NCBI GenBank assembly: GCA_964187785.1 | Contig: OZ076409.1 | Span: forward strand, 27,778,001 to 27,842,000 | Length of the DNA: 64,000 bases | DNA from: Amphiscolops sp. MND2022 | Lineage: Eukaryota | Reading direction: 5' to 3' | In this document: positions 14,339 to 60,600 of the stretch, one piece after another | How positions within the stretch are numbered: position 1 is the stretch's first letter | Layout: every line of letters starts with the position of its first letter | Made by a program: the position numbers and the translations under genes | Notes under the pieces: generated by a model | Database searches by the model: none | Seen by the model: the letters and a program-made list of their open reading frames with translations, nothing else | Told to the model about the DNA's origin: nothing

Positions 14339-15526
14339 GAACAAGAATCACAAGAATTTCATCTGAAATGCCAACACAGAAATGGTATTGTGAATGGTTA
14401 ATGTAAAAGTACCAGTTAGTTTGCATTTCCAACTAGAGTGTGAATCAAACGGCTGAGCCAGAGCTTGCTGAGTTTCCTGCTATAGTCCGCCGCCGAATCT
14501 GTTTGCGTGGAAGCAAGAACGCGCGCGGAATGACGTTTAGTTCTTACAGATAACAGCTCAAAGACGAGTTTCCACTTCTATAGTCGCTAATCTAAACTAA
14601 AGCAAAGCGAAGCACTAATGCACAGTGCTCCTTTGCTGCTCTATGGCGTGCGTGTTTCAACTCTGGTAACTCTGATCAGTCAGTTTCTTACCAAAACGCA
14701 GCAAATGCACATTATGTCGGTGATTTGAAGGTTAGTCACGTTTCACAAACACTAATGGTTTTTCTGGCTAATGGGTAACCTTTGACAAAAGTCCAATATT
14801 TTTTAATTTTTCAAGAATTTTTCAAAGCAGTGGAAAATTGGCGCATCTATTGAACGTTTGTTTAATGTGATGTATATCACACTCCGACCTAATGCCCATA
14901 TGCCTAATATTATGCCCATATGCCTAATATTACCTTGCGACAAGGGCGCTGAAATAAAAATGCCATCATTTTGTAAAGGCAACTAATCAACTCAATGGCA
15001 ACAAGAAATAAGAAATTTGATCGGCTGAAACGATCCAGTAATCACGAGGGAGGGAGTTTGAACGTAGTTGACCGTATCCAAGGTGAAGAAATAGTTTTGA
15101 AAATTATTTCAAGATTTTTGAAGCTTTTTGATACACTGATTACAAACAATGAAGTATATAATGAGTGGACTCTCAACATTACAATGAAAAAACATAATAC
15201 GTACGACTATTCGCGTGGTTTTCTTTGGACTGGTTTTCGAAAAAAAACGCTCAAGTGTCTGAACAATTCGCAGAAGCCGATTTGAAGCAATGACGTCATT
15301 ACCGAAAGCCGACAACCTAGTTCTCCGGCTCTTGTTAGCTGCTCTTCTACTCGCGACAGCACATCGAGCAACTGATAATCTTCATAGCTTCGAAGAGTGC
15401 GTTCACAACTTTGGAGCTAAACTTCTGGAAAAATGCGATCACCAGAAACTAATAGAGGCAAGAGCTGGAAAACTGAAGTTCCAAATTTTTGATCTGGAAC
15501 AATCAGTGGCTTCTTTCGTGGAAGTA

Positions 15527-15726
15527 NNNNNNNNNNNNNNNNNNNNNNNNNNNNNNNNNNNNNNNNNNNNNNNNNNNNNNNNNNNNNNNNNNNNNNNNNN
15601 NNNNNNNNNNNNNNNNNNNNNNNNNNNNNNNNNNNNNNNNNNNNNNNNNNNNNNNNNNNNNNNNNNNNNNNNNNNNNNNNNNNNNNNNNNNNNNNNNNNN
15701 NNNNNNNNNNNNNNNNNNNNNNNNNN
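15527..15726. other. Assembly gap (200 N)
   Basis: Run of N. Confidence 1.
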
Positions 15727-20249: not shown

Positions 20250-21755
20250 TGTTGGGATGACACAAATAAAATTACAGCTATATAAACTAATATTTACACG
20301 TCACAGCAGGTGCCAGAAAAAGTACATTTCAGTTCACTGTCTGGCAGGTAGCTGTCAAGTCTGCTATCCATTTCTACCTCAATCGTTACATCGGCTGTCA
20401 GCTAGTCGGCTTCCAGCCATCTAAACCTGACACTCCGCTTGGCTGAAAATCCTTTCGTATGCTGTATCGTCTTCAGTCTGCCCAAACCTTTTGTGAATAA
20501 GTCCGCCATGTTGTCAGCTGAGACAAACTTCGAGTGAATTCTCTGCTCGCCTCACTCGACCGTGTCCTTGAGGAACGCTAGGCGGGTGGCGAAGTGTACC
20601 ACATTGTAGCTACCATCGTCCTTCGAGACTCAACCATCGTCCTTCGAATTCAACCTTTTCTCAATCGCTTTTGTAAGGTGTTAGAGGTTTTCTGCACCAA
20701 AAGCTGAGGCCACAAAGGCGGGAAGAGTGCTAATAATAATGCGGATGAAACCCCAAGACCACCCATTTCAACGGGCAGAGCAATCAGAGTACTCGAAATT
20801 AAATTGCTTCAATGGCTTCTCGTAGACACTTCGCCTATCCAATCCCCAGAACGAAATTTCCGAGGTGATACACTTGATGTAAAATTCATGAAAATAAAAG
20901 TTTTATTGAAGCTTTTCGAATGTCATCGTTCATTTTCAATACGTTCCAATTGTATTCTAGAGCAAAATCGAAAGTCCCGAGCACAAAATGATCAACAGTG
21001 TGTGTCTGTAGCTTTACGCTCAGTCGATTTGGTCTCTGCTTTTTTCACTAAAAACAATGTTTTACCAAAAACTGTCCATCTCTTTCAGGTGTTGTATTTT
21101 GCGATAATCCTCACTGATCCGTCTTCCGGTGGTTTGCCTCAGTTCCATTTTTGTGGTTTTTTGGTGAACTTTTTTCTGATGCTACCTTTAATTGCCATTC
21201 TGTGAAATTCTAGGTCTTATTTGATGTCAAAAAGACTATCACGCTGGAATTTTTATTGCTCGAACTAATATTTTGGACTCAGTTGGTTCGATTTTTCGCG
21301 AGTCAAAATTTTAACGCTAAGAGAACAGTCGTTTCCCTGTAATAACCGAGTATATCTGACAATAAGCAACAAAATCTCCCAATAAGACATTCTTGTTTTC
21401 TGTACAACTTTTTTGCAAGTATTTCCAGACGTATGTTTTTCAATGCAAGGTCTTGTAACTAAAGTGCTGGTCGTTTCTCGTCTGCTCATAATTGTAATTA
21501 AGCAGATGTTGGGATCTCATGCTGGAACCCCGTGGACTGTGCCGAACCTATGGTAAACGCCCAAATGGAAAAATAAATGAACGCCGATGTTGAATCACGA
21601 AACAACAAAAAATTCCGCCAAGAGAATGTTTAAATTTTCCAGCCGGTGTCTCTTTATAAAACGCTGTCGTCCGCACAGCGGCGAGCGAGCCGGTGGTTTC
21701 TTTGAACAACTTATCTCCATTGCTCTGCAGTTTGCTATTGCGACATGTATGAGGA
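20177..21755 (+). repeat. 1.58-kb near-identical duplication, copy 2
   Basis: Matches 15830-17411. Confidence 0.9.
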
Positions 21756-30900: not shown

Positions 30901-33900
30901 TGTTCGTATTTTGTTTTGTTTTTTTTTCTATTGTATTTCGTTTTGATACATGCGCCCGTAGGCATTTTTATCGAGTTGTTTATAAGCCATGGCTTCGTAT
31001 TGAGGCGAAGTCATGGCGACAAACAGCCTTTGTCTGTTTTTTTTAATCAAAATGTTTTTGCGTTTTTTCAGGCTTATCATCGTGATGTGGTCTTTGTTAC
31101 AATATTGCGTAATGTATAGACCTAGTTCATCCTGTGAAATGGGCCAACCCCATTCATGGCAATCCAAGGCTAGAGCCTTCTTTCTAGTTTTTATAGATAT
31201 TGGGATGTAGTCATTGCCCTTGAAAAGAGCTTGAATTGGGGCTTGTTTAATTTACCCGAAAAGTCTATTACATCTTTTAACTTTACAAGTATGATTCTCT
31301 TTCGACATACATTTTATTACTACTATGTAGCGCAATTGTTGACCGCGATTTGGAGAAAACGCTCCGCATATATTCGAAATGAAATAGCTTCCCTGATATG
31401 AAACTTATGCATAATTATAAGTAGTTAAGTTGTGCGAATTTAGGTGTTCAGTCGGACCTGAGAATGATTCCAACGTACGTGCGCGCCTTGCCCGATGGAT
31501 CCGAACAGGGTCGCTACGTGGCCTTAGATTTGGGAGGCACCAGGTTCAGAGTGCTCACGGTCCACTTCAACGAGGGAACGGACAACGATGAGGTCACGAG
31601 CAAGTGGTTCGACATTCCCCCCAAAGTCATGACTGGCACTGGCTTCCAGCTGTTCGATTACATGGCAGAGTGCATCGCTATCGTCGTCAGTGAAAACTCC
31701 TTACAAGATTACGAATTGCCTCTCGGTTAATCTTTCACAATCCAATCTCATTCAACTTCCCTTCATTTTTGCCGACGGTTTTAGTCGGCGCTGCATGAAG
31801 TGAAACGCGACTATTATAGTGACTTTTTTTCTATCCACACGAACTGACCAAAATAGTTCTTAAAAGTTCTACAAAATATTATTGCACCAAATTGCACTAT
31901 TTAGCCTAGCGAACTGAACCAAAAAGGTTTTTCCTGTTTTTCCGCGTAACATACCATACCGGGCGAGACCAAAGGGTGCCCCCTTTCATTTTTTTTCGGC
32001 ACTGCGAGACTTTTTTTTCGAAAAAAAATTTTCCCCAAAGGGTCCCCCCCTTCATTTTTTTTGATGTTTTGCGACAGAATGGATGTTGGAAAATCCCAAA
32101 GGGTTCCTCCTTTCAGTTTTTTTCGGCATTGTGAGATTTTTTACCGAGAATAAAAAAAAATTCTTCAATTTTTTGATGTTTTGCCGCAGAATGGATGTTG
32201 AAAAACCCCAAAGGGTCCCGCCTTTCAGTTTTTCGGCATTGTGGGACTTTTCCTAAATTTTTTTTCTCTCCAAAGGGTCCCCCTTCAATTTCTTTGATAT
32301 TTTACAACAGATTGGGTGTTTAAAATCCCAAAGGGTCCCCCCTTTCAGTTTTTCGGCATTGTGAGATTTTTTTTCGAAAATTTGTTTTTTCTCCGAAGGG
32401 GCCCCCTTCAACTGCGACAAAAATGTTGACAATTTCGGAAGTTTCCCCCTTTTAGCGCGCCAGGGGCTCGCGCTAGCGGGCCCCGGTGCGCCACCCGGTC
32501 CATTTTTTGAGTATGTAATTTTTTCGAAAAATTTTTGATTTTCGAGTACTGTAAAAGAGAATACTTGACACTTGGAAGTCTTTTTGCTATTTTTGAGCCT
32601 TGGATATGGCGCCAACTTGGGCCGGTCCCGGCTTGTTATATCTAATTGATTGAATTTGTTCAACCTTTTAACATTATTGTTTTGTCGTGCACGAATGGAA
32701 TCAAAATTCGTTCACTAGAGCCTGTTCATTTTGAAATAAATGATTCGTTCTGCTAGTGTGATATAAAATCGTTATTCAGGTTTTATATGGCAATATCTAA
32801 AGTAAATAGCTGCACAATCTGATGAGTGAAATTAAAATGGTTTGACCGCGTTGATTTACAGGTTTCACTTTCTCGTTCCCGTGTCAGTTGAACGGTCTTG
32901 CAAGTGCCACTCTGTTGAACTGGACAAAGGGCTTCAACATCCCCGAAGTGGTTGGCCAGGACGTCGTGCAGAAACTCAACGAAGCAATCGAATTGAGAGG
33001 TAAACAAGCTGCAGCTCTGCTTCACCATTTGTTCGATTACCCTGTCAGCTTCACTTGAAAGTTTTCGTTTTTTAAAAGTCAATCTTTATAGTCGGCGCTT
33101 TATGAAATGAAATGCGAATATTGTAGTGGCCTTTCAGTCCGGTCGAAGTGACCATGAAAGATCTACTTTCTGTCTAACGTCGAAAGGTTTTGAAATCTCG
33201 TCCTTTCGTTTTTTGTCTTTCATTCGCCCTAAAAAGTTATGGCTTTTTTCGGCACTGTGCGACTATTTTTTGGAAACTTTCATTTAAAAAAAAGCACCCC
33301 TTCGGTTCTTTGATGTTTTCACTTTTTAAGCCATTCAGCTATCGCTCAGCACTGATATTTTGAGAGAAATTTAAAAAATAGGCTTCGCTTCACCTAAACA
33401 ATTGATTTGAAGTATCTTGATTCTTGAGAAGCCCCGGTTTATTCTGTTCTCGGCTTGTTGAAAGTTCAAATAGCCTTGAATATGCCGTTATTTAACGAAA
33501 CGCAAAGGCTTAACGAAACGAGACTCCGGAAATTGGACGCCAAAAACATGTTTACAAAACCGGAAATTTACAAACTGAAACATGTTTCAGAGAAATTGGA
33601 TTTTCAAGGTAAAGAAATTAATGAATGATGGCATAAATTGTAAACATCCCTATCACAATGAATTGCTCAACTCGAGCGGAATTGTATCACAAGGTGAAAC
33701 TTCATTTCGATTCAATTGTTATTTCACCGACGAAAGTCGAATAATCATTTTGGAATTAATCGCTGTTTCAGTCATTACATATTTTCGAAGCGTATTGTTT
33801 GATCGTTCCAATCAAAACCGATAATGGTTTTAATTGAATCAAATCAATACCAAATTTGTAAGATTCTGAATGTCTCAAATTCACCGGACTAAATCGCGAA

Positions 33901-36900
33901 TTCATGACAGCTTCTATTTGTTTTGAGCCCGCCCTTAGTCAACATGATTCAATATGAAGTTGAATTATCGTAGTTTTGTTCTTTTGCATACTTTTTACGA
34001 TGTTGATTTTGGCACTTGTTAGATTTCGAATTTCTTGCGAGAAGTTCAACTCCGCTCCTCTTTCAACTCCATTCATTTGTATGTACTATGTACAATGAAT
34101 TTGTGTGAGGCTGGACAAATGAGGGGAAAATTGGACCATGCTTCGTATTCCCCCTAAGCCGCCGTGGGCGTGGTATAGAGGAACATTGTTCAAATACCAT
34201 TATGTCGGCATCATTTGCGATGAAATCTTGGTCCAATAAAATAATTGATGTCGACATGATTCGATTTTTTACATTGGCGGGCAGTTGAAAGTTGCTCAGT
34301 ATTATTTACGGCAGATAGAATTTACGTTAAATTAATGGTCTTTCTAGATGATTTTAACTTGTTCTAGGTGTGAAATGTTGCCATTTCAATTCAAAAGTAT
34401 CAAAAAATCATTGTATATTTTTGATGGACGTGTCAAAACGATTGTGGTGTCAAAACTTTGTAAACATCAAATTCTTTCATTCGAGGAGGGATAAGAAACC
34501 AGGTGTACCTGGGGGAATAAGAATTATGGTCTGAAAAATTGTCGGAATAGTTGTTTGTCCTGAATTTGAGCAAATTTGATGTACCAGAGTGAATTTCAGG
34601 CAATCACGTTCGAGTAGAGGCAATAGTGAACGACACAGTGGGCTGTCTGTGTACGGGGGCCTATGAAGACCAAGAGGCTCAGATCGGAGTCATTTACGGG
34701 ACCGGAACCAATGCATGTTACATTGAGAAGCTGTCGAACATCAAAACTCTCAATCTGGATCCCAACGAAAGTGACCAGGTATACAAAATTGCTTCTTGAC
34801 CTATTATCAAAATGTTATTAACTCTGACTTCATTGGATGTTATCTGTTGTGCTGTTTTTTCTTAGGTCAATCTCATTGCTAATGGCCTTTGGTGTCTCCT
34901 TCAACTTTCAGGTTTTTCAAAAAACGTTTCAGTCAGGATGATTTATAAGTCAGGATAAATGATAAGTCAGGATCATTTATCAGACTACTTTACTTGCCGA
35001 CTGGGAAATGAATACTTGCTGAATTGATTTGTATGATATAATTGTAAGATGTCATTATAAGCTATTGATTCGTTGCGTTACTGGTCAGTTTCAAAACCGG
35101 TGCCTCCACATATCGCCTCAGCTCGGTATACCGAAGATTAGGGCTTCAGCTACCCACTACGTCATCATCCCAATCGAGCTGTAGTTCCGATGCTCGGAAG
35201 TGTTGAATGAACACACTTCACCTGTGTGTCTCACTTTCCGAAAAATCAATTTCGTTTTTTTTCCTTACTTGCGTACACCAAGTGTATTCTTTTCGAACCA
35301 GTTCAAAGTGAATTTGAAGTGTTGAAACCCTTATTGCACATGACTGAGTGTGAAGTATGTAGTGACGAATCTAGAAGTAGTGTATATAATCGTATTTGAC
35401 GCCAGCGCGAAGGGCGCAAGCTGGCTCACTTCGTTCGCCCCCTTGCTTCGCCATTCGCTTCGCTCATGGCTACTTCGCGCTAACGTCAAATACGATTATA
35501 TACACTACTTCTTTACCATCCTTACACCTATCGTTAAATACGATTTCTTACACTACTTTGGTAATACTCTACTAACCATGTTTTAGAATAAAGCTGAAAT
35601 TCTTTTGAACTGCTAAATTTCTATGAATTTCACTCTGTAAATGTAAATATTGATTTTCAAAAGAAATTTTTTCAGACTGCTAATTAGTTGAGAAGGTAGA
35701 TGTAAATATTGATTTTCAAACGAAATTCTTCCAGACTGCCAATTAGTTTAGAAGGTAGATGTAAATATTGATTTTCAAAACAATTAAAAAGAAACGAGAA
35801 AAACTTGAGCACTGAAGTGAATTTAATTACACCAAAAATCAATAAAAACACCCAACATTTTCAAAAATTATCTCCACTTCTACTGGGTTTTAAGAGATGG
35901 GGTTTTCACCATTGTGATCCTCTCTTCCATACGAGTAAAAAGAGATGTCGATGAGCAAAATCCGCCGAGTAGTTAACAAAACCCATCACCAAACGCATTC
36001 ATTTGAAACAAGATAAAATCAAAAAATCTAATTTGACCATGCTGGTTATTTGACCATGCTAGTTATTTGAGCATGTGCGATTTTTGAATTACGCGCGCTC
36101 CTAGGTATGGATAGGTGGATAGCAAACCATTGCACGAATCAAAAAATCTAATTTGACCATGCTAGTTATTTGAGCATGTGCGATTTTTGAATTACGCGGG
36201 CTCCTAGGTATGGATAAGCGGATAGCAAACCATTGCACGAATCAAAAAATCTAATTTGACCATGCTAGTTATTTGAGCATGTGCGATTTTTGAATCACGC
36301 GCGCTCCTAGGTATGGATAGGTGGATAGCAAACCATTGCATGAATCCTCCAAACATTCATTTGTATTATTAATTACAACTCAGTCGCCACACTCTCTTAT
36401 CAACATGAGTGACAATCTCAAAACGAATATCAACCTTGCCAAAAAAATAAAGAAACTCGGATCCCGTCAGGAGGCTGTTTTGGCTGGTGTGGCAGACCAA
36501 CTGACAGAAGAAGAGAAGGCAAATATCACCATTGCTCTAGGCAAAATGGATCAGCTCTCTAACAATATCAAGATTGAAGATGATAAACCCACAAATCAAA
36601 CCACATCGGGCGCACCAAATTTTGAAGCCTTCTTCTCAACATTCAGAAACGAGCTTCACGCATATGAGGAATCAGACAGAATGGACAGCTTGATGTTTTC
36701 ATCAGGTGAGTATCTCCAATTCAAGACAAGTCTCTATGACAGCTTTGATCCGATGTACTACAAGCGCTATATCTCGCAAATTTACAAATTTGAAGGTCAA
36801 GCCAACCGAGTGTTGCTGTTTCTTGCTGCTGACCGAGGTTTCATTTATTCCAAAATGAAAGAAGATTGTCTCCTGAAAAATATCACATGGAGAGAATATC

Positions 36901-39900
36901 TCGCTGGACAGAAACTCTCATACACGACGGTGAACAACCATATTCAGTTTTACGATCTGGTGGAACTGTACCCGAGAGTGCTCATATCCGGAGCAACCAA
37001 AACAGAATGGTTCAAATTCACAAATCAATTCAAAGGGGCGATAAAAGATGACGAAAGCATGAAAACGAGGTTGGCAGTCAGTTTAAAGGTATTCTTAGAG
37101 CAAGATGGCTCTTTTGAAGACGCCTGTGAAAACATTAAAATTTAATATTCCCCTCTATCTGTTTGGTGAGTTTGAAATGAATTTAGTCTATGGTCACAAT
37201 GTTTTAGTATCAGTTGAAACGAGACTTATACATTATAGCCTATCTCCACATGTTTAAGTATCCGTTGAACGGAGATTTATACATTATAGCCTATATCCAC
37301 ATGTTTAAGGATAGGACTTACCATCTTACCATGGTAATAGTCGCAGGTTGGCGGTCATATCATAATATTGTGTATAATCATGTATAATGTATAAAATACA
37401 CCGGAAAAAATATATTCAAATTTTCAGTTTTTTCTAGAATAACTGTACAGAATTAAATAAATCTACTAAGGTGGAAGAATACTGATGAAAAAAGACAATC
37501 GAATTTTATGTTTTTTGTTCACCAAATAAAGGTTGCCATTTTCAGCACACAATACTGTGTTGCATATAATCATTTTATTTGTATCTTGACTATTTTCTGT
37601 ATTATTCGGGAAAACATATAACGACTGACTTTTTGGTTCTGTTGCTGTGGAAGAAAGACACCCCCCTTTAATTGGAACATTTGTAATACTCTTTTATCTA
37701 GTTACTGAATGTTTTCGTGTGGATTCGAAAAAAGAGTCAGTATTATAGTCGCGTTTCACTTCATGATGTGCCGGCTCAAAACAAACACGAGACGCCAATA
37801 TGCTTATAACCAAATAAACGTTGATAATACTATTCAAATTTAAAACATGTAGTCTGTGATTATCAGTGTAGGTTTACCATTGCGCATGCCTATGTGTCTT
37901 GTATTTTTTAGTCATAGACATTTTCATGTCCAATTAAATAAAGAATGAATTTAACATTCAAAGAATTTGTCAAGAAATATGGATTAAAAAACGAAGCAAC
38001 TTCTAATGTAAAAATAAAAGGTATACTAGACATAATAAATAGACATATTCATGATTCCTGTAAAGTGTACATGAGAGATGATAAATTTACAACTGATTCA
38101 GGAATTGTAAATTTACACCCCTCAGTGGGAACACACTGGGTCATGTTTATTAAGGAATATTACTTCGATTCATATGGCTGCCCACCTCCAATAAACATAC
38201 TCAACTATCTTAATATTGGTCAATACTCAGAATATCAAATTCAAAAAAATGATAGCTATTGCGCAGCGTATTGTTTATATGTTTTATATCTTACACAAAG
38301 TATAGGCTTTAAAAATGCAGTTTTGAGTTTATACTATCAGACATTTTGTCATTAATAAATGAAGAAAATTAATACTTATTCAGCTCAGTTTAAAGTCATA
38401 TATCCAAAAGATCATTCAAAAAATAATAATACGAATGGTATTCCGAATGAGAAAATATTATCAAAAGATAGACAAGAATTTATAAATAACATAGCTGCTA
38501 GTGGATTTAAACACTTTCATGCATAATAAATGGATCTATCAAACTTTGTAACTTATGATAAAAAGGAATCTCTTTTGCTGAATATTGCTAAATCTAATCA
38601 AGAAATTGTTGAAAATACTCATTCGAAACCACAAGAAACTCTAGAATTTAAAATGACTAAACAAAAAGAATCTTTTTCATTCGATGTTCCTCTCCAACTA
38701 AATGAAAATTGGATGATGGGAGTAACAAGTTTAGAAGTCTATAATACAGTTTATAATATCACTAATAGCAATAACAAACTAGAGATTGTTCTGAATGATC
38801 AACAACTCAAAGAACTTAACCTTGACAGTGAATTATTAGTGTCTGTCGAAGAGTTATATAAGGCCTATTTTGTTAAACCTTATAAGTATAATGAATTTAT
38901 AGAAAAGGTTAATAAACTTATAACTAATAGTTATTCTAAAAAGAAGAAACTTACTAGAGTAGATTTTACCTATTTAACAAAGATAATTGAATCACTTAAT
39001 CAAATATATAAAGAACGCCTCAATCAAGAAAGAATAATTCAAGCATACAAAGACCACCTAAAACTTGAAAAAATAAATTGGGACGAAATAAATTGGGAGG
39101 AAATAAATTTGGATGAAATAAACCAAGAAGAAATAAACCAAATAAATCAAATAAATTTACCCCCCTTTGAAATTATTGAAAACGATTTCTTTGGAATACA
39201 ACTAACACCAGGAGTTTATGAACTAGTTGATATAAATAATGCAATTAAACAAAAAATTCATGAAAGTGATTATGATTTTAAAATTGATATAATACCCGAC
39301 ACAATATCAATGAAATCAGTTTTAACAACCTCAAACTCTATTCATTTTAACTCCAGACTTAACATTCTTTTGGGATTTACAAACAAGGATTACCCACCCG
39401 GAACTCACACTTCAGAGAAACCAGTTATGATAACGACCACCGATAAAGTTCACCTGAAGTGCGACTGCGTAGATGGTTCAATTGTTAATGGAATTAGAGA
39501 ACAAATCCTGTTTAGTTTTAATCTTAGTGCTCCTCCGGGATATAAAATTATAAATAATCCGACTACTGTTTTGTACAAAAAGATAAACAAAACAAGATTA
39601 GACCAGATACAATTTTTTCTTGAAGACTCCAACCACAACCCAGTAGATTTCAACAACGAGACACTCACATTCACAATTCAAATCATCAAGATTTAATATA
39701 AATAAATGAGCTTCAATAAATTTAAAACTAAGTCTTATTGTGTTGGTGGTAAACACTATTCTGCTACAACTAATATTCGAGGAGATATTTCTCAAAATAA
39801 AAAAACTGGCATGCCAGTTAAACTCCTACGTGGTGTGTGTGTAACATGTAAAAGAAATAAATCCCTTATAGTATCTGATCAAACTATTTCAGCCGAGGGA

Positions 39901-42900
39901 TTGGGTGACTTCTTTAACCATATTGGCAAAGCTGCAAAGAATGTTGGAAAGAAAATACTCAATAATCCTGGTAGGGCACTAGAACTCGCAGCTAATATTG
40001 GTACCGCAGCAGCAAGTAAAAATCCACGAATGATAGCTGCAACTGCTCCTGATATTATAAAATTTGTTCATCAAGGAAAAGGCTTATATTTGGGAAAAAT
40101 TCATTAAATTTATGGTTAATAAATGTATTCAATACATAATCGTGATGATTTAGAAAAATTAAAAAAATTGCAAAAAACAAAATCTTCACTCCACAAAGAA
40201 AGATTAAAAGAGAAACTTGGGAAGCAAGACTTTCATTACGATATGGAAGAAGTTTTTGAACCCGTTACTGAAAACCAGAAACAAAACCAAACTAAACAAC
40301 AAGAACTTTCTGAAAAGCAAATACAAGCGCTACGTGATTCTACTCAAACTACAACACAAGCAATCGAAAATCAGGCAAGAGCAATAGAACACAGTAGTGA
40401 TATTTTAAATAAAAATTTACAAAAATCTATTAAAGATGCTAATTCCAACCAAGTAGACAGTTCAATTGTTAAAACAGTTTCCAACCTTCTCAATGACAAA
40501 AACAAAAGTCAATTTAGTTTAGAACCTGTTTTAGGAAGTTCAAATTTCTTCACAATTAACCACACTGATCCTCAACTAGTACAAATCAAAGGTTCAACGA
40601 TGACTTTCCAGAATGGTAACACATATAATTTAAATGATCCGGATCTTTCATCTTTTATAACTAATGCACAAATAGATAAAAAAATACAAAACGAGAATCT
40701 TATTTATAATTTTTTAAAAGATATGAAATATGATCTTAATTATGGAGATAAAAAATCAAAGAGGTATTATTTCATTAAACATTTGATTAATCAATACACA
40801 TATCAACAATCCCAATCGGGAAGTGGATTAAATCAGTATATCTTCCTCCCATCTGACCCAGATGAGCTTGTAGATCAACTTAAACTAATCGTGTTAGAAA
40901 AAGTAGGAGGAAATGATAATCCTATGCTGAGCGAACAAATCATAGCAATTGCTGATAAACTTTTACAATACCAATGCATTACAACAAATCAACATCAAAA
41001 CATTGTTTCAGCTTTTACTAAAAAGGATCAGTTTGTGGATTAAAGATTTTATACTCTGGATTAGATTCATTGCACAGTTTATACTTACATCCGTTTTTAT
41101 CTTCTAGCCTGTTTATTAATAAATAGTTGTATTTTTCTTTCCATGCCTCCCTGCACAAACTTTTAAATTCATCATAAGACATATCAAAACCTGCAATATC
41201 TCTGTATATATTTTCTACATCTTTCAATGTTTGTTGAAATAAAATTATGATATTACTATTATTGCGTATGGTGCGTTTAGGCAAATCGAAATATGACTGT
41301 GATAAATAATAAACATCTAAATCATTATGTCTTCCCCTAGTAAAAAATGGATCTATTAATTTCTGATTCGAGTCTAACATATCATCAAATACAACAACAA
41401 TTTTGAAAATCTTGTATTGTTCTATCTTCTAGATCGTCTTCCACTGAAACGTCTTCTAGTTGTATGTTCTCGTATTGTTCCGGAGATCTAGTTATGATTT
41501 TTATTTGTTGTTCTGGGTTATCCAAGCGAATTAATTGTAATTTGTTTAATAACAAAAAAGTCTTACCACAAAATGAAGGACCAACTATTAATGTTCGATT
41601 TAATGCATCAGCCTCAATTGTATTATTTGTATCAGTTTTATGAATGTTTTTTATATGCTTTGACAAATATGTTTTATTGAATTCACGGTTACAAAATTCA
41701 CACCTCATCTTCCTATTAAAACAACTAATACACTTAATATATACATCACCATTTTTATATTTATAGAAATCTTCTTCAGATTTAAAAATATTACACCCTT
41801 TACAGATTTTTTTATTACCACAATTTAAACTGTTCATTTATTTAGTAAAATTCCGTTGTAAAATGAATCACTAAGACGATTTTTTGTCACTAAGACCCAC
41901 CTCTTAGTGAATAAGAAACACTAAGAATCACTAAGAGTCACTAAGACCCACCTCTTAGTGAATAAGAAACACTAAGAATCACTAAGAGTCACTAAGACCC
42001 AACACTTAGTGATAAAAATACCACTTTCAACCATTCTAAATTATTAAATGAACCTGAAACAAAAAATAGCTAAAGAAATATTCTCTCCTGTAGTTAAAAA
42101 ATTTGACCGCATCCAAATACAAACTCACTATAAAGATGAGTGTTGGAGTATTGATCTGATAGACCGATCTAGCTTAGCAAAATACAACAAAAACTACAAG
42201 TTTATTTTTACAATAATTGACAATCATACTAAATTTGCATGGGCGATTCCTCTTAAAGATAAATCAGGAAAAAGTACAACGACTGCATTCAAGAAACTAA
42301 TAGAAACTAGTAAAAGAAAACCTGAAAAAGTGTGGTCGGATAGAGGTAAAGAGTTCTATAATAAAACATTTTTGGATTTTCTTAAACAAAATGAAATACA
42401 AATTTATTCAACTCACTCAGATTTGAAAGCTGTTTTTGTTGAACGTTTCAATAGAACATTATTAGATCTTATCAAAGAACCGATGTATATTGAAGGTAAA
42501 GCTTGTTGGTTGAATCATATTAACAGTGCTTTGGATAAGTATAATAATCGTGTGCATACCACAACCCGCATGACACCGTTTGAAGCTAGTAATAAACCAA
42601 TAGATCCACCTACTTTTGTTAATAAACCGAAACAACCCAAATTTCAAGTGGGAGACTATGTAAGAGTTCCTGATAAAAGGAACATTTATTCAAAAGGCTA
42701 TACAACAAATTGGAATAGAGAACTTTTTAAAATACAAAAAATTAATCCAACTAACCCCATAACCTATACTTTAGAAGACGAAAACAACGAGCAAATAGCA
42801 GGAAAATATTATGAACAAGAACTTTTAAGAAGTGTATTCAACTTTGAATCTAATAACAAAACGTTAGAAAGTATGAATATTTTCCATCAGTTTGAGTAAT

Positions 42901-45900
42901 TATGCTAAAATAAATAAGAATGTCATTACATAAGTTTGGTTATAGTGCTGAAAGCCTACAAAAAGACAAGATTGAGAATCTTGAAAAAGAATTGGAGTCA
43001 CAAACCAAATTATTCAACTTAAAACTTTATGATTTGTCTAATAATTTAGAAAATTTTAATAACCTACAAGAAGTTATATTTGACAACGGTGAAACAAAGG
43101 TATTAGTCAATGCAAAAACGTTTGTAGACATAAACAAAAATATAGAAGATATAAAAATAAATTTGAAATACTTAGAACAAGATATTAAAAATAAATTATT
43201 AGAAAAGAAGAAAGAAATAATTTTGGATGCTGCTAAGTTGGTAGAAGAACAACAAACCATTTTGCGAAATAGTTTCGAGAGAAACCTTATTTCAGAATTG
43301 GAAAAAAGCAAAAACCAAGCAGTCAAGGATGTTATACAACTACTGTATAGCAAAGGATTGTTTGACTCATTTGAAAATAAGGACCAAATATTCCAGTCGT
43401 ATTTGACCTTCTCAAACCAATACTTGCTTGAAAAATACGGAACAGAAATAAAGACATCAGATGGTGTGTATTATTTATCAGACTTGGACTATTCAACGAG
43501 AGAAGATATTGTGAAGTGTTTAAAAAAAGATGAATACAAAGATATAGTTGACCTTAAATATAGAATGAAACTAACCACGAGTGAAATCAATTTCATACTT
43601 TTTGACTAAATAAATGAATGAAAAATTATACCCCAGTTTGCAACCACAAGTAGATAGTTTAGAGCAACACCTAAACCTACGATTGAAAGAAATAAATAGT
43701 TTCAATAATTCAATTCAAAATATAAAAGATATTAAAAATTTTTATAATCATGAAGCCAAAAAGTATAAAAAGAAAAGTAAACAATACAAGCTCATAAATT
43801 GTTTAATACAATCTGTTGATGGTGTTTCAATACTAGCTGTATCATCAACATGTGTCACTCTCAGCATTACTGGAGTTGGACTGGTTGTTGTCCCCGTTGC
43901 TAGTGGTATTGGTGCAGGTTTATGTATAATCAGTAAGCTTCTTGGTGAGTACCTGAAAAGAAAAGAACAACACAATCTTAAGAAATATACCCTTGCTGGT
44001 AGAACACTACATGATTTCTGTAAACTACATTCAAAATGTTTAGAAGACAATAAAATCGATCTGAATGAATATAACAAACTAAAACAATCTTATGATACAT
44101 ACAAAACGAACAAAACTAAACTAAATTCTGAGTTTACTTTTTTAGGCTAACATTATTTAGTAAAAACAATATCAGTATAAATTTTAAATCATGATTTTTT
44201 GTATATAAATGGAATTATTTTCTTTGAAAAATAAATATGTTCTCGATAATCCAATTCATAAAATTGATTTTATTAAATACTCGCCTAGTAGTTTAGCTAC
44301 AATCAACAACAATAATTCAAATATTTCCATCATTTTCCCAAGAGAAGATGCTTATATTTGTTTACAAAACTCATACATTAGTCTAGAATTTGAAGTTCTT
44401 AAAAACGATAACACACGCTACGTAGACAACGACCAAATAAGCTTGGTCAACTTTGGGCCTGTTGCTTTATTTAGTGAAGCTAAACTTGTGACATCATCAG
44501 GAAAGCATCTTGAGAAAGTTGATAACCTACACCCAGTATGTTTAATGTACAAGCTTTTGACTAGCAACCAACAAACAAGTCAATTGATGTACGGATTTGA
44601 AGAATCAGAAAACACCAGGCGATTAGAATTAACAAACCACAAAACAGAAAAAGGAACCTTTTTTGTTAGAATAAAACTAAAAGACTTGTTTGGATTTGCT
44701 GATCAAGAAAAAATAACTTACGGATTGGGTTATTCTCTGACATTAAAACGTAATAATAATAACGACCCTATCATCAGGGACAACGGTGTAGATGCTGCAA
44801 AAATAGATATAAAAGATATTGCTTGGCACATTCCACACTATGTACCCAGTATGGAAAACCAGCAGCTTGTCCTTAATCAAATATTAGATAAAGACCCAAC
44901 CGAGTTGTATTATATAGAACGAACTGTCTTTAGAAAAGATGTTAACACCAATAATAATTGGACATTTGAATTAGGCAACAGTGGAGAATCGACACCAACA
45001 TACGTGATAGTTGGATTTCAAGCTAGAAATAAAATTGATTCACAAACACATAACAACTCAACATTCGATCGACTTTCGGTTAGTAATGCAGTTTGTAAAA
45101 TAGGATCAGAAAAATATCCCGATGATGGAATAGAATGTGACTACGACCGCGACAAATACGATCAAGCTTATTATGAAATCGAAAACTTCTATAACTTACA
45201 TTCTGAATCTAATCTACTCAATCCGTTTATCAGTTTGCACAAATTCCGAACGAGTTACAATTTTTATGTATTTGACATATCTAAGCAAAAACCACCTATA
45301 GCATCTCAACGTATTAGATTAGAATTTAAATTTAGTGCTGCTTTTGGTGTAGCAGATTATGTAGCTTATGCCCTTGTACTAACACCCAAGTTAATAAGTA
45401 TTAGTAGTGACGGACAAAGACACTTTGATCTTTTATAATTCATCAATTCATCAATATAAAAACATTAGATGAAAACGAATCTGTAATTAAAAAATTGAAA
45501 ATTTATTTGAAATAAATAATATATAATAAATGAAGTACATAAATAATAAATTTTACACTGAAGTTAATAATCCAAAGTACATTATCAATGATGGTAAAAT
45601 TCTGAGAGAAACATCTCCTCCCAAGTCATTGAAATCTAAATATGAAGTTATGAATGGTGTTAAATTAGATAAAAAATCAAATATAATTGAATTAGATGAC
45701 GGATCTCTTCATATTGTAACGAAATAAATGGATGAAGAAGAATTTTTAAATCCTACCATGTGTAGGAGATGTAATAGAAATGCTCTACTAGAATACGAGT
45801 ATGAATTCACTTGTTATGTATGTGAATTCAATGTTATAAAAACTAAAAATCAATTGACAAAAGTTCAAAGAAAAAAGAATATCAATTTTAAAGGGAGATT

Positions 45901-48900
45901 AACATATGCAACTCCGAAAATAATTGGTATTTGTATGGAAGTTAATTCATTAGTTCAAACCAATGATATAGACGTTCTCGCAGCTGTCCTGACATATCTT
46001 AAAAAGAAGAGACTAAATATCTTAGAAGAAATCCTAAACAAGTTTGATGACATGCCTGATGATTTCGAAAAAAAATGTCTTCGCTGCATCTGAAGGAATT
46101 CACAAAGCTGGAGATTATGCACTTAGGATGATGAAGTGGTTGGTCTCGGCTAGGTATTATGAAAACATTAACTATTATGACTTGATAGCAACTACTTTAA
46201 GATATATGAAGGGGGAACAGCTCTTTGTGAGGAAAGAAGTTTTCTTGTTTATAAATGAGCGATAGTGAAGGTGAAACAATTTATCCTGAAAGTGAGGTTT
46301 CTGAGGATGAATCTCTACATAGTTCAGATGAAGACTTTATCGATGATTCGGAGAGCGAAGATGAAGACTATATCCCCCCAAAACGGAAGCGGAGAAATAT
46401 AGAAATTATTATAAAAATAGAAAAATGAAAAAACAATTGAATAAAAATTTATATAGTAAATGGATGAAACATATCATAGGAAATATTGTGAAGCTTGTGA
46501 TAAACAAGTTCACACATCATCGTTTGCAAAGCATCTGAAGTCTAAAATTCATTTACAGAAAAATGTAGGTGTAATCCCACAAAAACCCAGAGTTCTACTA
46601 GCAGTGGAAGAACAACAAGAACCTAGAGTTCTACCAGCAGTGGAAGAACAACAAGAACCTAGAGTTCTACCAGTAGTGGAAGAACAACAACAACCTCGAG
46701 CTCGACCTATCCCCCCAAAACGGAATCGGAGAAATATAGAAATTATTATAAAAATAGAAAAATAGAAAAAACAATTGAATAAAAATTTATATAGTAAATG
46801 AACACAACAAATACCAAATATTGTGAAGTGTGTGATAAACACATTCACACAGCATCCTTCTCGAGACATGAGAAATCTAAAATTCATTTACACAATATTG
46901 GCGTTGTACCGGGAGACCCTATACAACGAAGGGCGCGATCGGTCCCAACACTAAAACAATTAGCGAGAGCTAAAGTCAATCTCTCAGAAAAAGAGTTGGC
47001 AAAACATATGATAAATCCATACTACTTCTCTAAAAGATATGAACCTCAATATGATGTTAATCTTGATCAACACCACCCCAAACACTTAAATAGTAAGATA
47101 ACTGTCAAACCTAAATATGATCTCCCTATTGAATTGCTCGATCTGAATAATATCTTCAAAGAAATGTCAGCAATATATGCTAGGTTAATTGAGCAATATA
47201 AATTCAAATATCAAGTTGTCTTCTCAGTTATTTTCGATAAGGAGACTCGAGATGAGTTAGAACAGTATGTTAGTTTGGAGGTCAATCAGAGTTTAACTTG
47301 GAATGATATTGAAAAGTATGATCTAGAAGGAAAAACAAATGCATTGATTGAAAATCTGGAGATGAAAGATAGTGGTTGGAGATTCTGTAAAATTGCATCG
47401 ATGACTATATACTTTTATAAAACTGTTGAACTGAATGGTAGCAGTTATGTTAAAATACCTCTTAGAAGCGCTGCTATTTTAAACATTGAAAATAATGATA
47501 AGTACTGTTTTCTATGGAGCATCTTAGCTCACCTTCATCCTTGTGAGAATTCTCACCCTAATAGAGTTTCAAACTATCGAGAATATTTTAGAGAATTGAA
47601 AACAGATGGATTGGAATTCCCTTTTAAAACTATGTTTTTTTAAATGTTTTTAAATTTGAAAAGATGAATAATCTAGCTATTAATATATTTGAGTTACAGT
47701 TCTATCAAGAGGGGGAAAAGTGGAAACATAAATTGATTCCTATTGAGGTTAGTGAGAACAATTCAGAAACAGTGATTGATTTGGTGATATATAAAAATCA
47801 CTATGCCCTCATTAAAAAACTTCATGTATTCTTAGGAAAAAGGGATTCAAAATTTGTTTGTCGTCGATGTCTAAGTTGCTTTACAAATGAAAACGTTTTG
47901 GTGAAACATACTGAAAGATGTAAGCAACAAGATATCACAGCTATCAGAGTTAGCAAGGATAGTCATTTAATGTGGAAGAAGCACTTTCATAAGATCCCAC
48001 TATATTTCAGGATCTATGGTGATTTCGAATGTAATAATAAAAGAGAATATTCTAACATAGGTAATAAAACCACAAACATTTTCAGACAAAATCCAATGTG
48101 TAATGGATTTTACATAGTATCTGAGATGGATAATGTTCTACAGTCTGGATGGCATCTCTCGCCCTTTGGAGAGGATAATGTTGAATGGTTTGTTAATGAA
48201 GTCATAAAGATTGAGAATAAGATGAATTTCTATTTTAAGAATACAAAGAAAGAGATTATGATGACTCAAGAAGATGAGGAAGATTTTAAGAATAGTACTC
48301 ATTGTTGGTTCTGTGAACTTCCCTTAGATGGGAGAGCTGTCAGAGATCATTCTCATCTGACTGGTAGGTATCGAGGGGCTGCACATGAAAAGTGTAATAT
48401 AAATGTGAAACAGAAACAGAGTAATTTCATACCATTCGTGTTTCACAACTTCAGTAACTACGACTGTCACTTGTTCTTTAAAACATTGATTGATAAAAAA
48501 TCAGATAATGTTCCCCTTCATGTCATACCCAAGACAAATGAGGAATATATATCAATTTCATATGGTTGTATTAGATTTATAGATTCATATAGATTTTTAT
48601 CAAGTAGTTTAGATGGGTTGGTTAAAACAGTTGATGAGTTGACAATTCTGAAGAGAGAGTTTCCTGATAATTGGGAGCTGTTGAGTAAGAAGTTGGCGTA
48701 CCCATATGAATATTTTAAATCTCTTGATGATTATCAGTTGTCAGTTAAAGATCTTGTAAAAGAGGATTACTTCAGTAGATTGAAAAATGGATATCCTCAA
48801 GATAGTGAGATTCAGAGAACAAATGAAATCATTGAAACTTTTAAGATTAAAACTGGAAAGGAGTTGACTGAGTTGTATTTGAAAACTGATGTTGTTTTGT

Positions 48901-51900
48901 TAGCAGATGTGTTTGAGAAGTTCATAAAGGTATCATTAAACGAATTTAAAATCAATCCGTTATATTGTGTTAGTCTTCCTGGATATACTTGGTAATGTGG
49001 ATTGAAATATACTGGGATTAATTTGCAAACACTTCAAGATAAAGATATGATCTTAATGTTAGAGAATAATATTAGAGGTGGGATTTCATCTGTTATGGGG
49101 GATAGATATGTTAAATCAGATGAAAACAAAAAGATTTTATATATTGATGCTAATAATCTATATGGGTGGGCAATGAGTCAGTATTTGCCATATGATGATA
49201 TAAAATTTGATGGTAATGTTAAGTTGGAAGATATATTAGATACACCTGATGATAGTGAGGTTGGGTATTTTGTTGAAGTTGACTTGAAATATCCTGAGGG
49301 GATAAGAGAGAAGACTGTGAAATTCCCATTCTGTCCAGATAATAAGTTTTCACCTCAAGATAAGTTTACTGAGTATATGAAAAAAATGAAGCAGGATAGT
49401 TATGCTAAATGTAAAAAGTTAATATGTGATTGGACTGACAAGAAAAAGTATCTGATACATTATCGAATGTTGAAGTTTTATGTGAGACATGGTATGATTG
49501 TTGAGAAAGTTCATGAAGTGATTTCTTTTAAGCAGAGTAAGTGGTTGGAGAAGTACATTGATTTCAATACTCAGAAAAGAAATAGGACGAAAAATGATTT
49601 TGAGAAAGATTTTTACAAACTATTAAACAATGCGTTCTATGGAAAGACAATGGAGAATGTGCGAAATAGAACTAAGATCGAGTTCATTAAAAAAGATGAA
49701 GAAGAGAAGATGGTGAAGTGGCAATCTAAGTTGACGTTTAATGGGATCCATAAGTGTTATGAGAAATATGATAGTTTCACGTTTAAGATGAATGAGGTTC
49801 TGATGGATAAGCCAATATATCTTGGATTTAGTGTGTTAGAGTTGAGCAAGTTATTGATGTATGAAACGTACTATGATAAATTTCAACCTTACTTTGGGAA
49901 AGAGAATATTCAACTTCACTATACCGACTGTGACAGCATGGTATTAAGTATTAAAACTGAGGATATCATTAACGACTTACAAAATCTCAAAGATTTATTT
50001 GATTTCAGCAATTTAAACAGAGAGCATCAATTGTTTAGTGATGAAAATAAAAAAGTAGTTGGTAAATTTAAAATTGAAACGCCTGGAAGTATTTGGATTG
50101 ATGAATTTGTTTGTTTGAGAAGTAAAGCATATTCTTATAGATGTGGAGGTGAAAGTTCTAACAAACTAAAAGGTATCTCAAAATCTCAGAGTAAGAATAT
50201 TAAATTTGAAGAGTATTACAACTGTTTATTTGGGTGTGATTATCAAAGAGAATGTGAAAATTTTGTAATTAGATCTATAGATCATGATATGTTTCTTCAA
50301 AAGGTTACAAAGAATTCTTTATCTGCATTTGATGAGAAGCGATGTTATTTGAATAATATTGAGAGTATCCCTTGGATGTAATGTGAATATCCTTGAGTTT
50401 GAGTAATAACTAAATAGTATAGAAAGGGGGATTTGATATTAACTTGAAGGGTGAGCAATTGAGTGATGGGGCGAAGCGGAGCGGAGTAGTGTATATAATC
50501 GTATTTGACATTAGCGCGAAGGTCACCATGAGTGGAGCGAAGCGAAGCGAATGGTGAAGCAAGTGGGGGAGGTTGAAGAGTGAGCAGCTGAGCGAAGCGA
50601 GGCTGTGAGCGATGAGGCCGAGCCACGCTTGCGCCTTCGCGCTGGTGTCAAATACGATTATATACACTACTGCTGTAGTTCCGATGCTCGGAAGTGTTGA
50701 ATGAACACACTTCACCTGTGTGTCTCACTTTCCGAAAAATCAATTTCGTTTTTTTTCCTTACTTGCGTACACCAAGTGTATTCTTTTCGAACCAGTTCAA
50801 AGTGAATTTGAAGTGTTGAAACCCTTATTGCACATGACTGAGTGTGAAAAGCCGCATATACATTAATCGGTTACAATAATGTTCGGTAGAATTTCATGTT
50901 TTAAAACACTTCTTAGTTGTTTTGTAAGTGTTTCACTGGATATAGGCTGCCTTGAAAAATCAAATACCTAATAAGCTCTGCTCTTGGTTACGTACATGTT
51001 CCATACTTTGATCCAAAACACTGCGATCAAAACACTATCTTTGTCAACAGCGTTTGAGAAGATATTTTTTTCGCTCTCTTCAGTCAAAAATAGTCTCAAA
51101 CTAATTGAAAGTTTTTCAATTTTCAAATGTCATTCTTACAACTCGTACGAAACAAAGAAGTACGCAACGATGCTTCGACTTTTGCTTGAAGAAGCTGTTC
51201 AAGTGTTGAAAACCGATCAAAGCTTCCATTAAATATTGTCGAGATTCAAAATGTAAACTTCCTACATGTCACCACACTTTTTTCCTTAACCTGTAATTTT
51301 CAAATACTTCGATGACAATTGGTGCTTGCGGGTTTCAGTCTCCTCACGTACGTAGTAACATTGCTTATTGCTTACTATCATTACTGCTATATTTACTACT
51401 TATAGTAAACCTAATTCACAGTTGACTTCATCATTGGTTTTGGGAAAATCGACGACTTCTGAGCATGTTTTCACATGTCATGATTTTCAAATCGATCTTG
51501 CTGAGAAATGATATCTACAGATACCGAGGAAATAAAGTCTTCATAGTAGTTTGGGAGACTGAAAATGGGATTTTTTTTGCTGTTTCTATTCGAGAAAAAG
51601 TTTCAGCTAACCCGAACAAAAGCATATCAAATAGCAAGCATTCAGGAGAAAACGTTTTTCATTTTGCCTCTAAGCTTATGCACCGTCTGAAGTGTACACA
51701 TTAGCTGATTAAAAATTTGTATTCTAGTCCTTTGTGCTATAATGGGATTGATGTTAGGTTCCAAAAAGTAGAAAAAATTGGCTGTTGTTGTGATATGCAA
51801 TATTCAGTCTTGATAGTTGAAGGTCGTCTTACTGATTGTAACATTGTCACTGTTTTCATTTTGCGGACGTCAAGTGGATCTTTTTAAACAGTCTTTAATA

Positions 51901-57677: not shown

Positions 57678-60600
57678 TGTAGCAACAGTTTCTAATTTGC
57701 TTTTGTTGCACGAGGTCTAGTTGTGAAAGGGTATGCGGTTACCTTTCTTATTGGTGAAGGTTTTTCTAAAACATTCGTTAGTGGTGTTAACTTTTGAATT
57801 AACCAATCAGGAATCAACACATGAAATTACGTATGAACAAGTTTGAACTTGATTTTCTGCCACGTTTATTTACACTTTCCCACTTTATTTCAAGAGTCAA
57901 GTTTGTTTCTACTCTTCTCACTGAATAAAAACTGTCTTCTCATTATCAAATTTCATTGAATCATTTCTTAAAACAAGTCTTCAAACAACAACATTTTTTA
58001 GTGCCGCGACTACCCAGGAATTTTGAACCTGGAAAATCAATCTCTACATTGAACAGAAGGATTATTAAATTTGAAAAATGGCTGAAGCTTTGAAAAGAAC
58101 GAGATCTGGCCATCTCGGAACAATTACCTGGACAGAAAACTCAGTGAAAGGAATCCTTGAGAAGGAACCTAGCACACTAACGCTGCTGGAAATCTCAAAG
58201 ATTGAGTGTTTTCTTGAAAGGTGCAAGGAAAGTGTTCAAAATTGAAGAATTAAACGAAAGCATCATCAACGAATTGACTGAAAGTGACTAGAGCTAGAAT
58301 TGATGATAATGATCTTAAGATCAAAACAACAATCAAAGCGCTTGAAATGGCCGAAGAATGGATCGAAGAGGGTGCTCACGCCGCCCCGAGACAATCACAG
58401 CCTGTGACTAAAGATAATCAACAAACATCCACTTCTGGATTGAAGCTGCAGAAACTCCACTATCTCAAGTCTTCGCTGAAAGATGAGCCTGCTCGTCTTT
58501 TATCGCTTTTACCTACTTCCAGTGCGAATTACCAAGTTGCCAAAAAACTTCTTCAAGACAGGTATGCGAATAAAAGAATGATAATTCACACTCATCTAGA
58601 AGCCATCTTTGAATTTCGTCCGATCAAAGAAGAATCGCCTGACCAGCTCCGGAAATTGATTAGCAATTTGATGGAAAACACGATGGCCCTACCAGGAATG
58701 GGATTGGATGTCGGACCATCTGATTTTATCTGGGTTCACATCATTGCTAAAATGTTGGACACACAGAGCCGTAGAAAATGGGAACTTCACAGCAAGGGCG
58801 ATGGTGCTCAGAGCATGAACAACCTAAAGCAGTTTCTCGAAGATAGAGCTCGAGCACTTGAAGCCTCATCAAGTAAATTAGTTAAGAAAAATTAGGAATT
58901 GAACAAAGTTCAACGTTACCAAGACAAGACTCTACTGCTAGCGTGCCCTGCATTAACTGCTCCAAGGGACACAAAACAAATTACATCAGTGCAAGATTAT
59001 GAGTTATGAATACAAACAGAAATTGTGTTTCAATTGTTTACGGCCAGGTCACAATTCAAAGGCCTGCAAATCAAGGTGTCAGGAGTGTCAAAAGCTGCAC
59101 CATACCCTGCTCCATACTCCTGGTTAGCAAACTGAACAGACCCCCGTGGCCAATTCGCATTTGGGTCACGAGGCGATATTTTTTGCGAAACACATTCTAC
59201 GTACGGTGTAAGTGTCAGTCATGTCAAAAACTGGCATCGCTCACAAGTGTCGAGCACTCCTGGATAGTGGATCGGATTTGACATTCACTAGCGAGGACTG
59301 TGTACAACGTTTACAGCTGAAACGACTCGAATCTGAGATTTTCATCAATGGCAATGGATGTTCATCAAAATCATTTACAATGAGGATAGTGGAAAGTCTG
59401 ATCTGACAATTGTTGATGAAAATTCCATCTCTTACGATGTTTCAGCATTCATTTTACCACGACTGACAGCTGCTATTCCCTTCAGTCCGCTGAAAATACC
59501 AGATCTAATCAAGTTTCCAAATATCAAGCTTTCTGGCCTAAATTTTGCAAAACCTTCCAATATTGAAATCATCATCGGAGTTGATCTTTATGAACAAGTC
59601 ATTGGAAACGAAAGAACCAAAGTGTGATGGTATCTACGCACGCAAGACAGTATTCGGGTGGACAATCTGTGGATTGAAACCTGGCAAGTCAGTCACAACC
59701 GTTAGTTCCTTCCAATCATCGGTCGACTTTGATTTGAAGCAACTTTGCGAGTTGAAAGAAATTCCAAAAGTTCGCCAATTCTCCAAGGAAGAAGCCTGTG
59801 AGTAACATTTTGTTAACACGACAAATTACCAAGACAACAGTTTCACTGTAAAATTACCCTTTAAGCAAGGTTGCAAGATTGTCAGTTGGGAGAAAGTTTA
59901 GATCAAGCGAACAGAAGGGAGGAAGTTCCAGCGAACGGGACACGCTGCGAGGACAGCAAAAGCTTCTACCTACCCCACCATTGCGTATTCAAAGACGATT
60001 CGACCACTACAAAACTTCGTGTTGTCTTCGATGGATCTGCGAAGACCCCCACTGGAAAGTCTTTAATTGACACTCTGATGGTTGGTCCAACAGTACAGGG
60101 CGACCTTTACTCCATCATTATACGCTTTCGAGTGGTACCTGTTGCTTTGTCAGCTGATATAAACAAAATGTACAGACAGGTTGCTTTAGACGTACGAGAC
60201 AAGGATTTTCATCGGATCATTTGATGTGAAAGAAAGGACGTACCTGTGCTTATTTTTCGCATGACAAGAATGACATACGACATTGCATCATCAGCCTTTC
60301 ATTCCACAAGATGTGTGAAAGACGTTGCTAAGCGAACTTGCAACTGAAAGGTCCAATACCACTTGGAGCATTCCTTCTATGTGGATGTTTTTCTTGGTGA
60401 AGTCAATTCTGTTGAAGATGCACGGAAACTGATTGTAGATCTTTATTCCGAACTCCTCAAATATGGATTCCCACTGGGTAAATTGGTATCAAGTTGTTCT
60501 ACATTGATTGAGGAACTACCCGATGAGCTGCGAGAAACAGCTAACGAATGTGAAATCTGTCAGACGACTACAAAATAAAGGCTCTAGGAATGTTTTGGAA

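Follow-up and report, generated by a model that had tools for sequence, protein, structure and literature searches.

How does an element whose integrase normally leaves a scar of a few base pairs come to be flanked by a host duplication of 177 bp? This question is raised by a Polinton in the genome of Amphiscolops sp. MND2022 (assembly GCA_964187785.1). The window analyzed here comprises 64,000 nucleotides of the forward strand of contig OZ076409.1 (27,778,001 to 27,842,000), and all positions given for this element and its surroundings refer to this 64-kb stretch. An initial annotation had noticed the duplication and ascribed it to an integration in which one junction was made by the integrase and the other by repair. 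Its premise that the normal Polinton scar is short (about 6 bp) agrees with two published descriptions: the most common end motif of Mavericks, (AGT)2//(ACT)2, is normally accompanied by a 6-bp target duplication (PMC8097293), and the range given for Polinton target duplications is 5-8 bp (bioRxiv 2023.08.22.554363).

A 177-bp duplication flanks a Polinton in a hexokinase intron

The inserted element extends from 35376 to 50671 (15,296 bp) and is bounded by the tips (AGT)2 and (ACT)2. It had been taken for a Polinton, and the presence of an rve integrase, a double jelly-roll capsid protein and a protein-primed DNA polymerase B (pPolB), together with the end motif and the length, bears this out. 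Its terminal inverted repeats (TIRs) carry the short tandem end motif and its size falls within 13-25 kb, although the TIRs are imperfect and unequal. With its rve integrase, its capsid protein, a pPolB with predicted terminal-protein (TP) and vOTU domains, its 15.3 kb and its tips it resembles the Polintons/Mavericks treated as adintoviruses in PMC8502044, and its polymerase is probably of the 'Beta' or pPolB2 type. In contrast to an ordinary Polinton/Maverick, it is accompanied by a 177-bp duplication and a filler, and its terminal repeats are short, unequal and each self-complementary.

Positions 35178-35354 are identical to positions 50672-50848 over 177 bp (100% identity); the match extends by 0 bases to the left and by none past base 177 to the right. 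When the exact match was re-computed, the coordinates and sequences of the initial annotation were reproduced. The two junctions are also as it had described them. The right terminus, ACTACT, ends at 50671 directly against the right copy of the repeat (50672-50848), whereas on the left, and only there, a filler of 21 nt (35355-35375) separates the left copy (35178-35354) from the AGTAGT tip at 35376, and the flanking hexamers TCTAGA and GCTGTA differ. A canonical target duplication of 5-8 bp against both ends is thus absent, and the 177-bp repeat and the filler are found instead. The clean join at the right copy is probably the joint made by the integrase, and the left copy would be the newly made one. 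No further copy of the 177-mer is present anywhere in the window, its host context shows no telling open reading frame (ORF), and no Rfam match was obtained in 34780-55000.

The host gene at this site encodes a hexokinase, for which the nearest named proteins are those of Convolutriloba macropyga and Symsagittifera roscoffensis (87-88% identity). These matches make a related, convolutid-type acoel the likely host. In tblastn searches with the Convolutriloba and Symsagittifera proteins seven hexokinase exons were found in order. The exon upstream of the insert (34557-34781, forward strand, about residues 183-241) is in register with the next one (54988-55200, forward strand, residues 240-310). 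Since these consecutive exons, one reaching to residue 241 and the other starting from residue 240, flank the insert, the Polinton lies within a single hexokinase intron, and its two flanks come from the same locus. Such collinearity rules out that two unrelated loci were misjoined, though not an artefact at the level of haplotypes. A haplotype switch or a misjoin during assembly might be suspected at a multicopy 15-kb repeat with palindromic ends, all the more as the 177-bp repeat is 100% identical and dozens of near-identical family copies exist. We consider such an artefact improbable. Besides the collinear host gene, there is no N gap at the junctions (the sole N run in the window, 15527-15726, is distant from both), and the novel 21-nt junction must derive from some molecule. 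Furthermore, the private proteins of this copy, both pPolB fragments included, are encoded on a single 288,544-bp ENA contig, which possibly represents the same data.

Origin of the duplication

Two unlike junctions of this kind are known from one-ended retroviral integration. As described in PMC5041404, the integrase of human immunodeficiency virus (HIV) or avian sarcoma/leukosis virus (ASLV) inserts one end only and host enzymes insert the other. One junction is then normal, the free 3' end is lengthened with copied sequence by a host polymerase, and a host duplication of hundreds to thousands of bp is the usual outcome. Here, too, the right junction is normal and the left one is host-made in appearance, with a long host duplication and sequence appended at the free end. 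In the reading that we favor, and to which we give about an even chance, the duplication of host intron sequence would have been left by a one-ended integration in which the integrase joined the right end and host repair the left. The core of the initial annotation, integrase at one junction and repair at the other, is upheld by the clean right junction and by a left junction that looks repaired in the manner reported in PMC5041404. In contrast to the HIV-1 and ASLV cases, which were provoked in the laboratory with drugs or mutant ends, the present case is natural and inherited and its aberrant end is untruncated. That neither end is truncated follows from the tips, both of which carry the commonest Maverick motif, (AGT)2//(ACT)2.

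In such a one-ended integration, the integrase would join the right 3' end to G35178, while the left end would fail to be transferred 6 bp away. A host polymerase would then extend the free left 3' end, possibly first by 3 nt copied in a fold-back on the hairpin of this end and then by some 18 nt, whether templated or not. The free left end would be joined 177 bp downstream, and filling in of the intervening strand would duplicate the 177 bp.

The last three nucleotides of the filler, AGA, pair with TCT at 35510-35512 and extend the left stem, as the initial annotation had stated. The probability of this match from host base frequencies is about 0.017, with the match having been noticed post hoc, and we regard it as a suggestive hint only, of the kind expected of a 3' end that was folded on its own hairpin and then extended. 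The filler had further been said to echo the terminal motif. This part of the claim did not stand up: when the coverage by local 5-7-nt words was compared with that of shuffled fillers and of random host 21-mers, it was at chance level (P = 0.55-1.0). A filler templated by local sequence is thereby rejected at the testable level, and apart from the 3-nt fold-back match the filler at the aberrant end shows chance-level similarity to local sequence. Termini lying 3 nt further out (AGA/GCT) were rejected as well, since the tip given in print is (AGT)2 and GCT forms part of the host sequence that was duplicated.

Several points weigh against a one-ended integration. The structure of the junctions is taken from the assembly sequence. 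Of the 21 filler bases, 18 could not be traced to any source in local sequence, and microhomology did not exceed chance, whereas short homology is usual in the retroviral model (PMC5041404). Aberrant retroviral ends are often truncated, and this left end is not. Finally, the same final sequence would result if an insertion with a normal 6-bp duplication had its left junction repaired later.

In this latter case the element would have been inserted with an ordinary duplication of GCTGTA. A break at the left junction, caused by abortive excision through the integrase or by cruciform cleavage of the hairpin, would later have been followed by an aborted repair, in which the empty homologue or the right flank served as template for 171 further bases, which were then end-joined to the left tip with the 21-nt filler. 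Aborted synthesis-dependent repair with end-joining is an established process, and the start of the left copy coincides exactly with the 6-bp duplication that such an insertion would have made. Both ends form strong palindromes, and the many identical siblings of this copy make it likely that active integrase is available in trans. However, two events are needed, and breakage of a palindrome should as a rule leave damage, yet the left tip and stem are intact. We regard this sequence of events as rather unlikely; like the one-ended integration, it retains the claim that the integrase made one junction and repair the other.

The ends of the element are unequal in length (134 versus 187 nt) and the pPolBs of its siblings are mosaic, which would also be in line with an event involving two elements or two ends. 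The left end would then derive from another insertion, or from a donor whose flank was carried along, and would have been joined by recombination or by hybrid-end transposition; either a donor flank ending in the target hexamer TCTAGA or a second copy inserted 177 bp away could be envisaged. TCTAGA is palindromic, as a symmetric target site would be, and NCT/AGN is found next to both tips. Such a scheme is nevertheless of low probability in our view, as it presupposes another insertion within 177 bp or a flank carried along, besides extra steps, and as the host site does not contain the filler.

If the one-ended integration is accepted, the duplication would be a natural record of a Polinton integrase acting on each end separately, as retroviral integrase does, and it would mean that Polintons can duplicate host DNA. 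To our knowledge, Polinton integration has not been watched experimentally so far. One-ended integration, although known from retroviruses, has apparently not been reported for Polintons; neither it nor long Polinton target duplications were found in print in a literature search to which supplementary tables of target site duplications (TSDs; e.g. PMC12220804) were external. Long direct repeats at a host locus hit by Polintons are also present at eri-6/7 of Caenorhabditis elegans. There, according to bioRxiv 2024.01.15.575659, they derive from Polinton TIRs after inversion, whereas here the repeat is host intron sequence.

Age of the insertion and sibling copies

The event had been judged to be recent. 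This is in agreement with the 177 identical bases, which bound the divergence to <1.7% (95%), and with the nearest intact sibling among the 18 siblings compared, whose pPolB differs in 12 of 1184 residues; full-length siblings are 99% identical. The exact integrase protein of the window is found on 34 contigs, the exact protease on 68 and the product of another ORF on 59, while the capsid cluster has 80 members and the polymerase cluster 136. Judged from these sequences, the family is young and abundant. By a rough estimate, a repeat as old as this copy is expected to be still unmutated in a quarter to half of the cases. Given this estimate and the low divergence of the siblings, the duplication may date back to the insertion itself; in a young family with an intact integrase, a 177-bp repeat that has not yet mutated is in keeping with this age. 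Dozens of siblings in one long-read assembly make the questions of integration and of the terminal hairpins described below directly testable.

The sibling polymerases are mosaic: compared with P0336, P0337, P0338 and P0457-P0489, the segment 46798-50381 consists of blocks differing by 0-2% and blocks differing by 5-20%. This mosaicism points to frequent recombination among the copies. In the cluster of P0338 many sibling polymerases are 1537 aa long and contain an intein of about 350 aa (Hom_end and Intein_splicing in Pfam) at the PolC motif; those lacking it have about 1190 aa, and the copy in the window is without intein. DNA of close relatives was not found in viral contigs when searched by the terminal 18-mer, nor in viral contigs, genomes or metagenomes when searched by the capsid protein, nor in five metagenome-assembled genomes (MAGs) when searched by the left end.

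Terminal hairpins of the element

Each terminus of the Polinton is a long palindrome. The left one, with the (AGT)2 tip, is predicted to form a branched hairpin of 134 nt with a 37-bp stem (35376-35509; z = -11.4), and the right one, with the (ACT)2 tip, a branched hairpin of 187 nt with a 38-bp stem (50485-50671; z = -10.0). The window contains no other stems of this kind. Where left and right differ, each end still matches itself. One stem pair is G-C at the left end and A-T at the right end, both sides having been changed, which with two sequences only carries no statistical weight. A CC/TT mismatch is kept at both ends in such a way that the strand with the free 3' end has G.T wobbles and a flush stem, whereas the other strand has C.A mismatches. 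The 3'-end strands are thus predicted to fold into flush stems of 37-38 bp, as expected of a terminal self-priming hairpin. Their loops contain five GCGNAGC/GCGNNAGC words, a number reached in 0 of 20,000 shuffles, against a background of 0.19 per kb. Words of the GCGNAGC type form unusually stable, exonuclease-resistant mini-hairpins, as stated in PMC13037366.

The hairpin ends bear on how the displaced Polinton strand is copied. The standard panhandle (racket) model presupposes that the TIRs match, and the present ends match themselves better than each other. The replication of the element nevertheless probably still starts from a protein. In a structural model of the pPolB N-terminus (mean per-residue confidence, pLDDT, of 83) TP and vOTU domains are predicted. 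Eight of the nine top VIA matches of this model are Y-family polymerases, with a best Z of 7.1, which is middling, at a root-mean-square deviation of 3.9 over 105 aligned residues. Likeness to Y-family polymerases is a reported signature of the terminal-protein domain (PMC11071308). Among 84 alignment rows Ser192, in the Ser192-Gly that is the predicted linking position, is near-invariant and Cys237 of the vOTU domain is invariant. The top viral fold match is a protein of Drosophila-associated adintovirus 2. Owing to the TP-like domain and the near-invariant Ser192-Gly predicted by this model, protein priming is likely retained in this Polinton family. The idea that the hairpins substitute for protein priming was rejected on account of the same predicted domain and linking serine.

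T- or Y-shaped terminal hairpins and rolling-hairpin replication are known from parvoviruses, among them adeno-associated virus (AAV). The long terminal stem, the branched tip and the flush-paired 3' end of the Polinton resemble them. In contrast to parvoviruses and AAV, the TP-type domain and the jump-back motif are kept here, and no HUH Rep was found among the 18 ORFs scanned with Pfam. [quoted passage not shown] The likeness consists in palindromes at the TIR tips of rve-bearing elements and in a proposed role in replication. Those elements, however, are from a protist, with a palindrome of 52 nt in the example given, whereas the ends described here, including those of the relatives treated below, are hairpins of 114-286 nt with fixed polarity in elements with pPolB and a predicted TP. 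Hairpin TIRs in pPolB-bearing animal Polintons were not found in a literature search to which Repbase and Kapitonov and Jurka 2006 were external.

Hairpin ends in distant relatives

The sample of relatives consisted of 232 fetched loci, which overlap, mostly do not include element ends and, where matched, have 25-57% polymerase identity. Ten more motif-bounded terminal hairpins were found among them, in eight elements or end fragments: both ends of L210 and of G004:C67, one end each of L069, L134 and L211, and three ends without genes in view, which were placed by similarity to the TIR of C67. The termini lie at 291-464, 15254-15427 and 169-282 of L210, 3805-3963 of L203, 3054-3212 of L204, 3459-3590 of L069, 5614-5742 of L134, 7327-7612 of L211, 4549-4684 of L214 and 13750-13867 of L216. 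The first 192 distant loci contributed few terminal hairpins, most of those loci being without element ends. Of three relatives with both TIRs inside the contig two are hairpin-ended; the third (G006:C2, without TSD and possibly eroded) is not. In L210 (G004:C9, 169-291) the insertion point of one hairpin-ended element lies 8 nt away from the tip of a second one. Viral contigs were also scanned twice by pattern; the four loci obtained were all chance matches without long stems or Polinton genes. Other pPolB-bearing loci, L150/L174 and L151 (G003 contigs), have multi-kilobase inverted repeats, and many eukaryote-like Polinton contigs are present inside bacterial MAGs as contamination.

Counting the two ends in the window, the more stable fold is that of the 3'-end strand in 12 of 12 ends. 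An excess of GCG(N)AG loop words is seen on this strand in ten ends; the other two lack such words on both strands. A stem flaw is conserved about 19-20 bp from the tip (7 ends) or at 26-29 bp (5 ends, on the 5'-end strand), with L216 as an exception whose first flaw lies at 11 bp. The 12 ends represent about four lineages and are therefore not independent. Flip and flop forms as in AAV were not encountered, all of these related ends having one orientation, and this fixed polarity argues against a flip-flop type of resolution. We prefer to think that the 3' end of the displaced strand folds back and rebuilds a protected duplex origin without the far end.

L210, which encodes pPolB, rve and an A32 ATPase by Pfam, is flanked by an ordinary 6-bp duplication (TAGGAA/TAGGAA). 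Hairpin ends thus do not force long duplications. G004:C67 lies in an ATT microsatellite, and its flanks share at most 23 bp, without any long duplication. Most likely the 177-bp duplication arose by accident in this one copy and does not reflect a rule of the family. That fold-back extension would block one end as a matter of course, so that one-ended integrations and long duplications recur and have been overlooked, appears very doubtful in view of these two relatives, the only hairpin-ended ones with two flanks. This proposal could draw on the 3-nt fold-back match at the repaired end (p ~0.017), on published surveys that inspect just 6 bp or 50 bp of flank, and on the many rve-bearing elements in which no TSD was called (in two cryptophyte clusters a TSD is assigned to 58%). 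Surveys inspecting 6-50 bp of flank would score copies such as the present one as TSD-less.

The polarised hairpin ends are a more general and more testable lead than the duplication. A wider view, tentative and in our estimate somewhat unlikely, is that there is a widespread, so far undescribed class of TP-primed Polintons with self-folding ends of fixed polarity, together with long host duplications that recur unseen in animal genomes. In elements of this class the 3' end of the displaced strand would snap back on an inner copy of the terminus, with the G.T wobbles and the GCGNAGC loops always on that strand. The protected duplex origin would be rebuilt locally and not via an end-to-end panhandle, leaving the two ends free to diverge, and an occasional fold-back extension would block the integrase at one end and give rise to long host duplications.

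Genes of the element and neighbouring features

The left hairpin is followed by subterminal tandem repeats (35637-36346; 59 bp x2.4 and 103 bp x2.9) and, on the forward strand, by an ORF of 246 aa without assigned function (36405-37145; cluster of 35 members). The forward ORF at 37945-38355 likely encodes the maturation protease, which we take to be of the adenain type from its motif and which is 39% identical to an ORF of the complete distant Polinton L201. A candidate minor capsid protein, so labelled from its position, is encoded at 38530-39696 (forward strand; 27% to L201). The likely packaging ATPase occupies two frames on the reverse strand (41018-41837; 44% to L201), is broken near 41382 and presumably carries Walker A and GRH motifs. 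In tblastn these three range from 27 to 44% identity to L201, and none has a Pfam match.

The rve integrase (42048-42899, forward strand) is intact, with D36, D98 and E132, and matches PF00665 above the cut-off (E 1.3e-12). The double jelly-roll major capsid protein (44209-45438, forward strand; PF21738, E 1.7e-20) is intact as well. The pPolB gene (46798-50381, forward strand) is disrupted in two places, with a change of frame near 47640 and a stop at 48993-48995. It is matched by 2211 representatives at E<=1e-30 and only weakly by PF03175. A weak EndoVII/HNH match (E 0.0023) marks a region that could in principle nick DNA. Just upstream, at 46460-46900, a C2H2-like zinc-finger module occurs in duplicate and includes a tandem repeat of 36 bp.

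A non-coding stretch of 69 nt within the Polinton (37714-37782) is 85% identical, in inverted orientation, to part of an upstream host intron (31778-31843). Further upstream, 15830-17392 and 20177-21736 form a tandem duplication with a spacing of about 4.35 kb and 1541 of 1564 positions identical; it begins just past the 200-N gap and possibly represents a duplication of haplotypes made in assembly. At 58278-60000, downstream of the hexokinase gene, lies the remnant of a long terminal repeat (LTR) retrotransposon with gag- and protease-like frames, which is presumably BEL/Pao-like.

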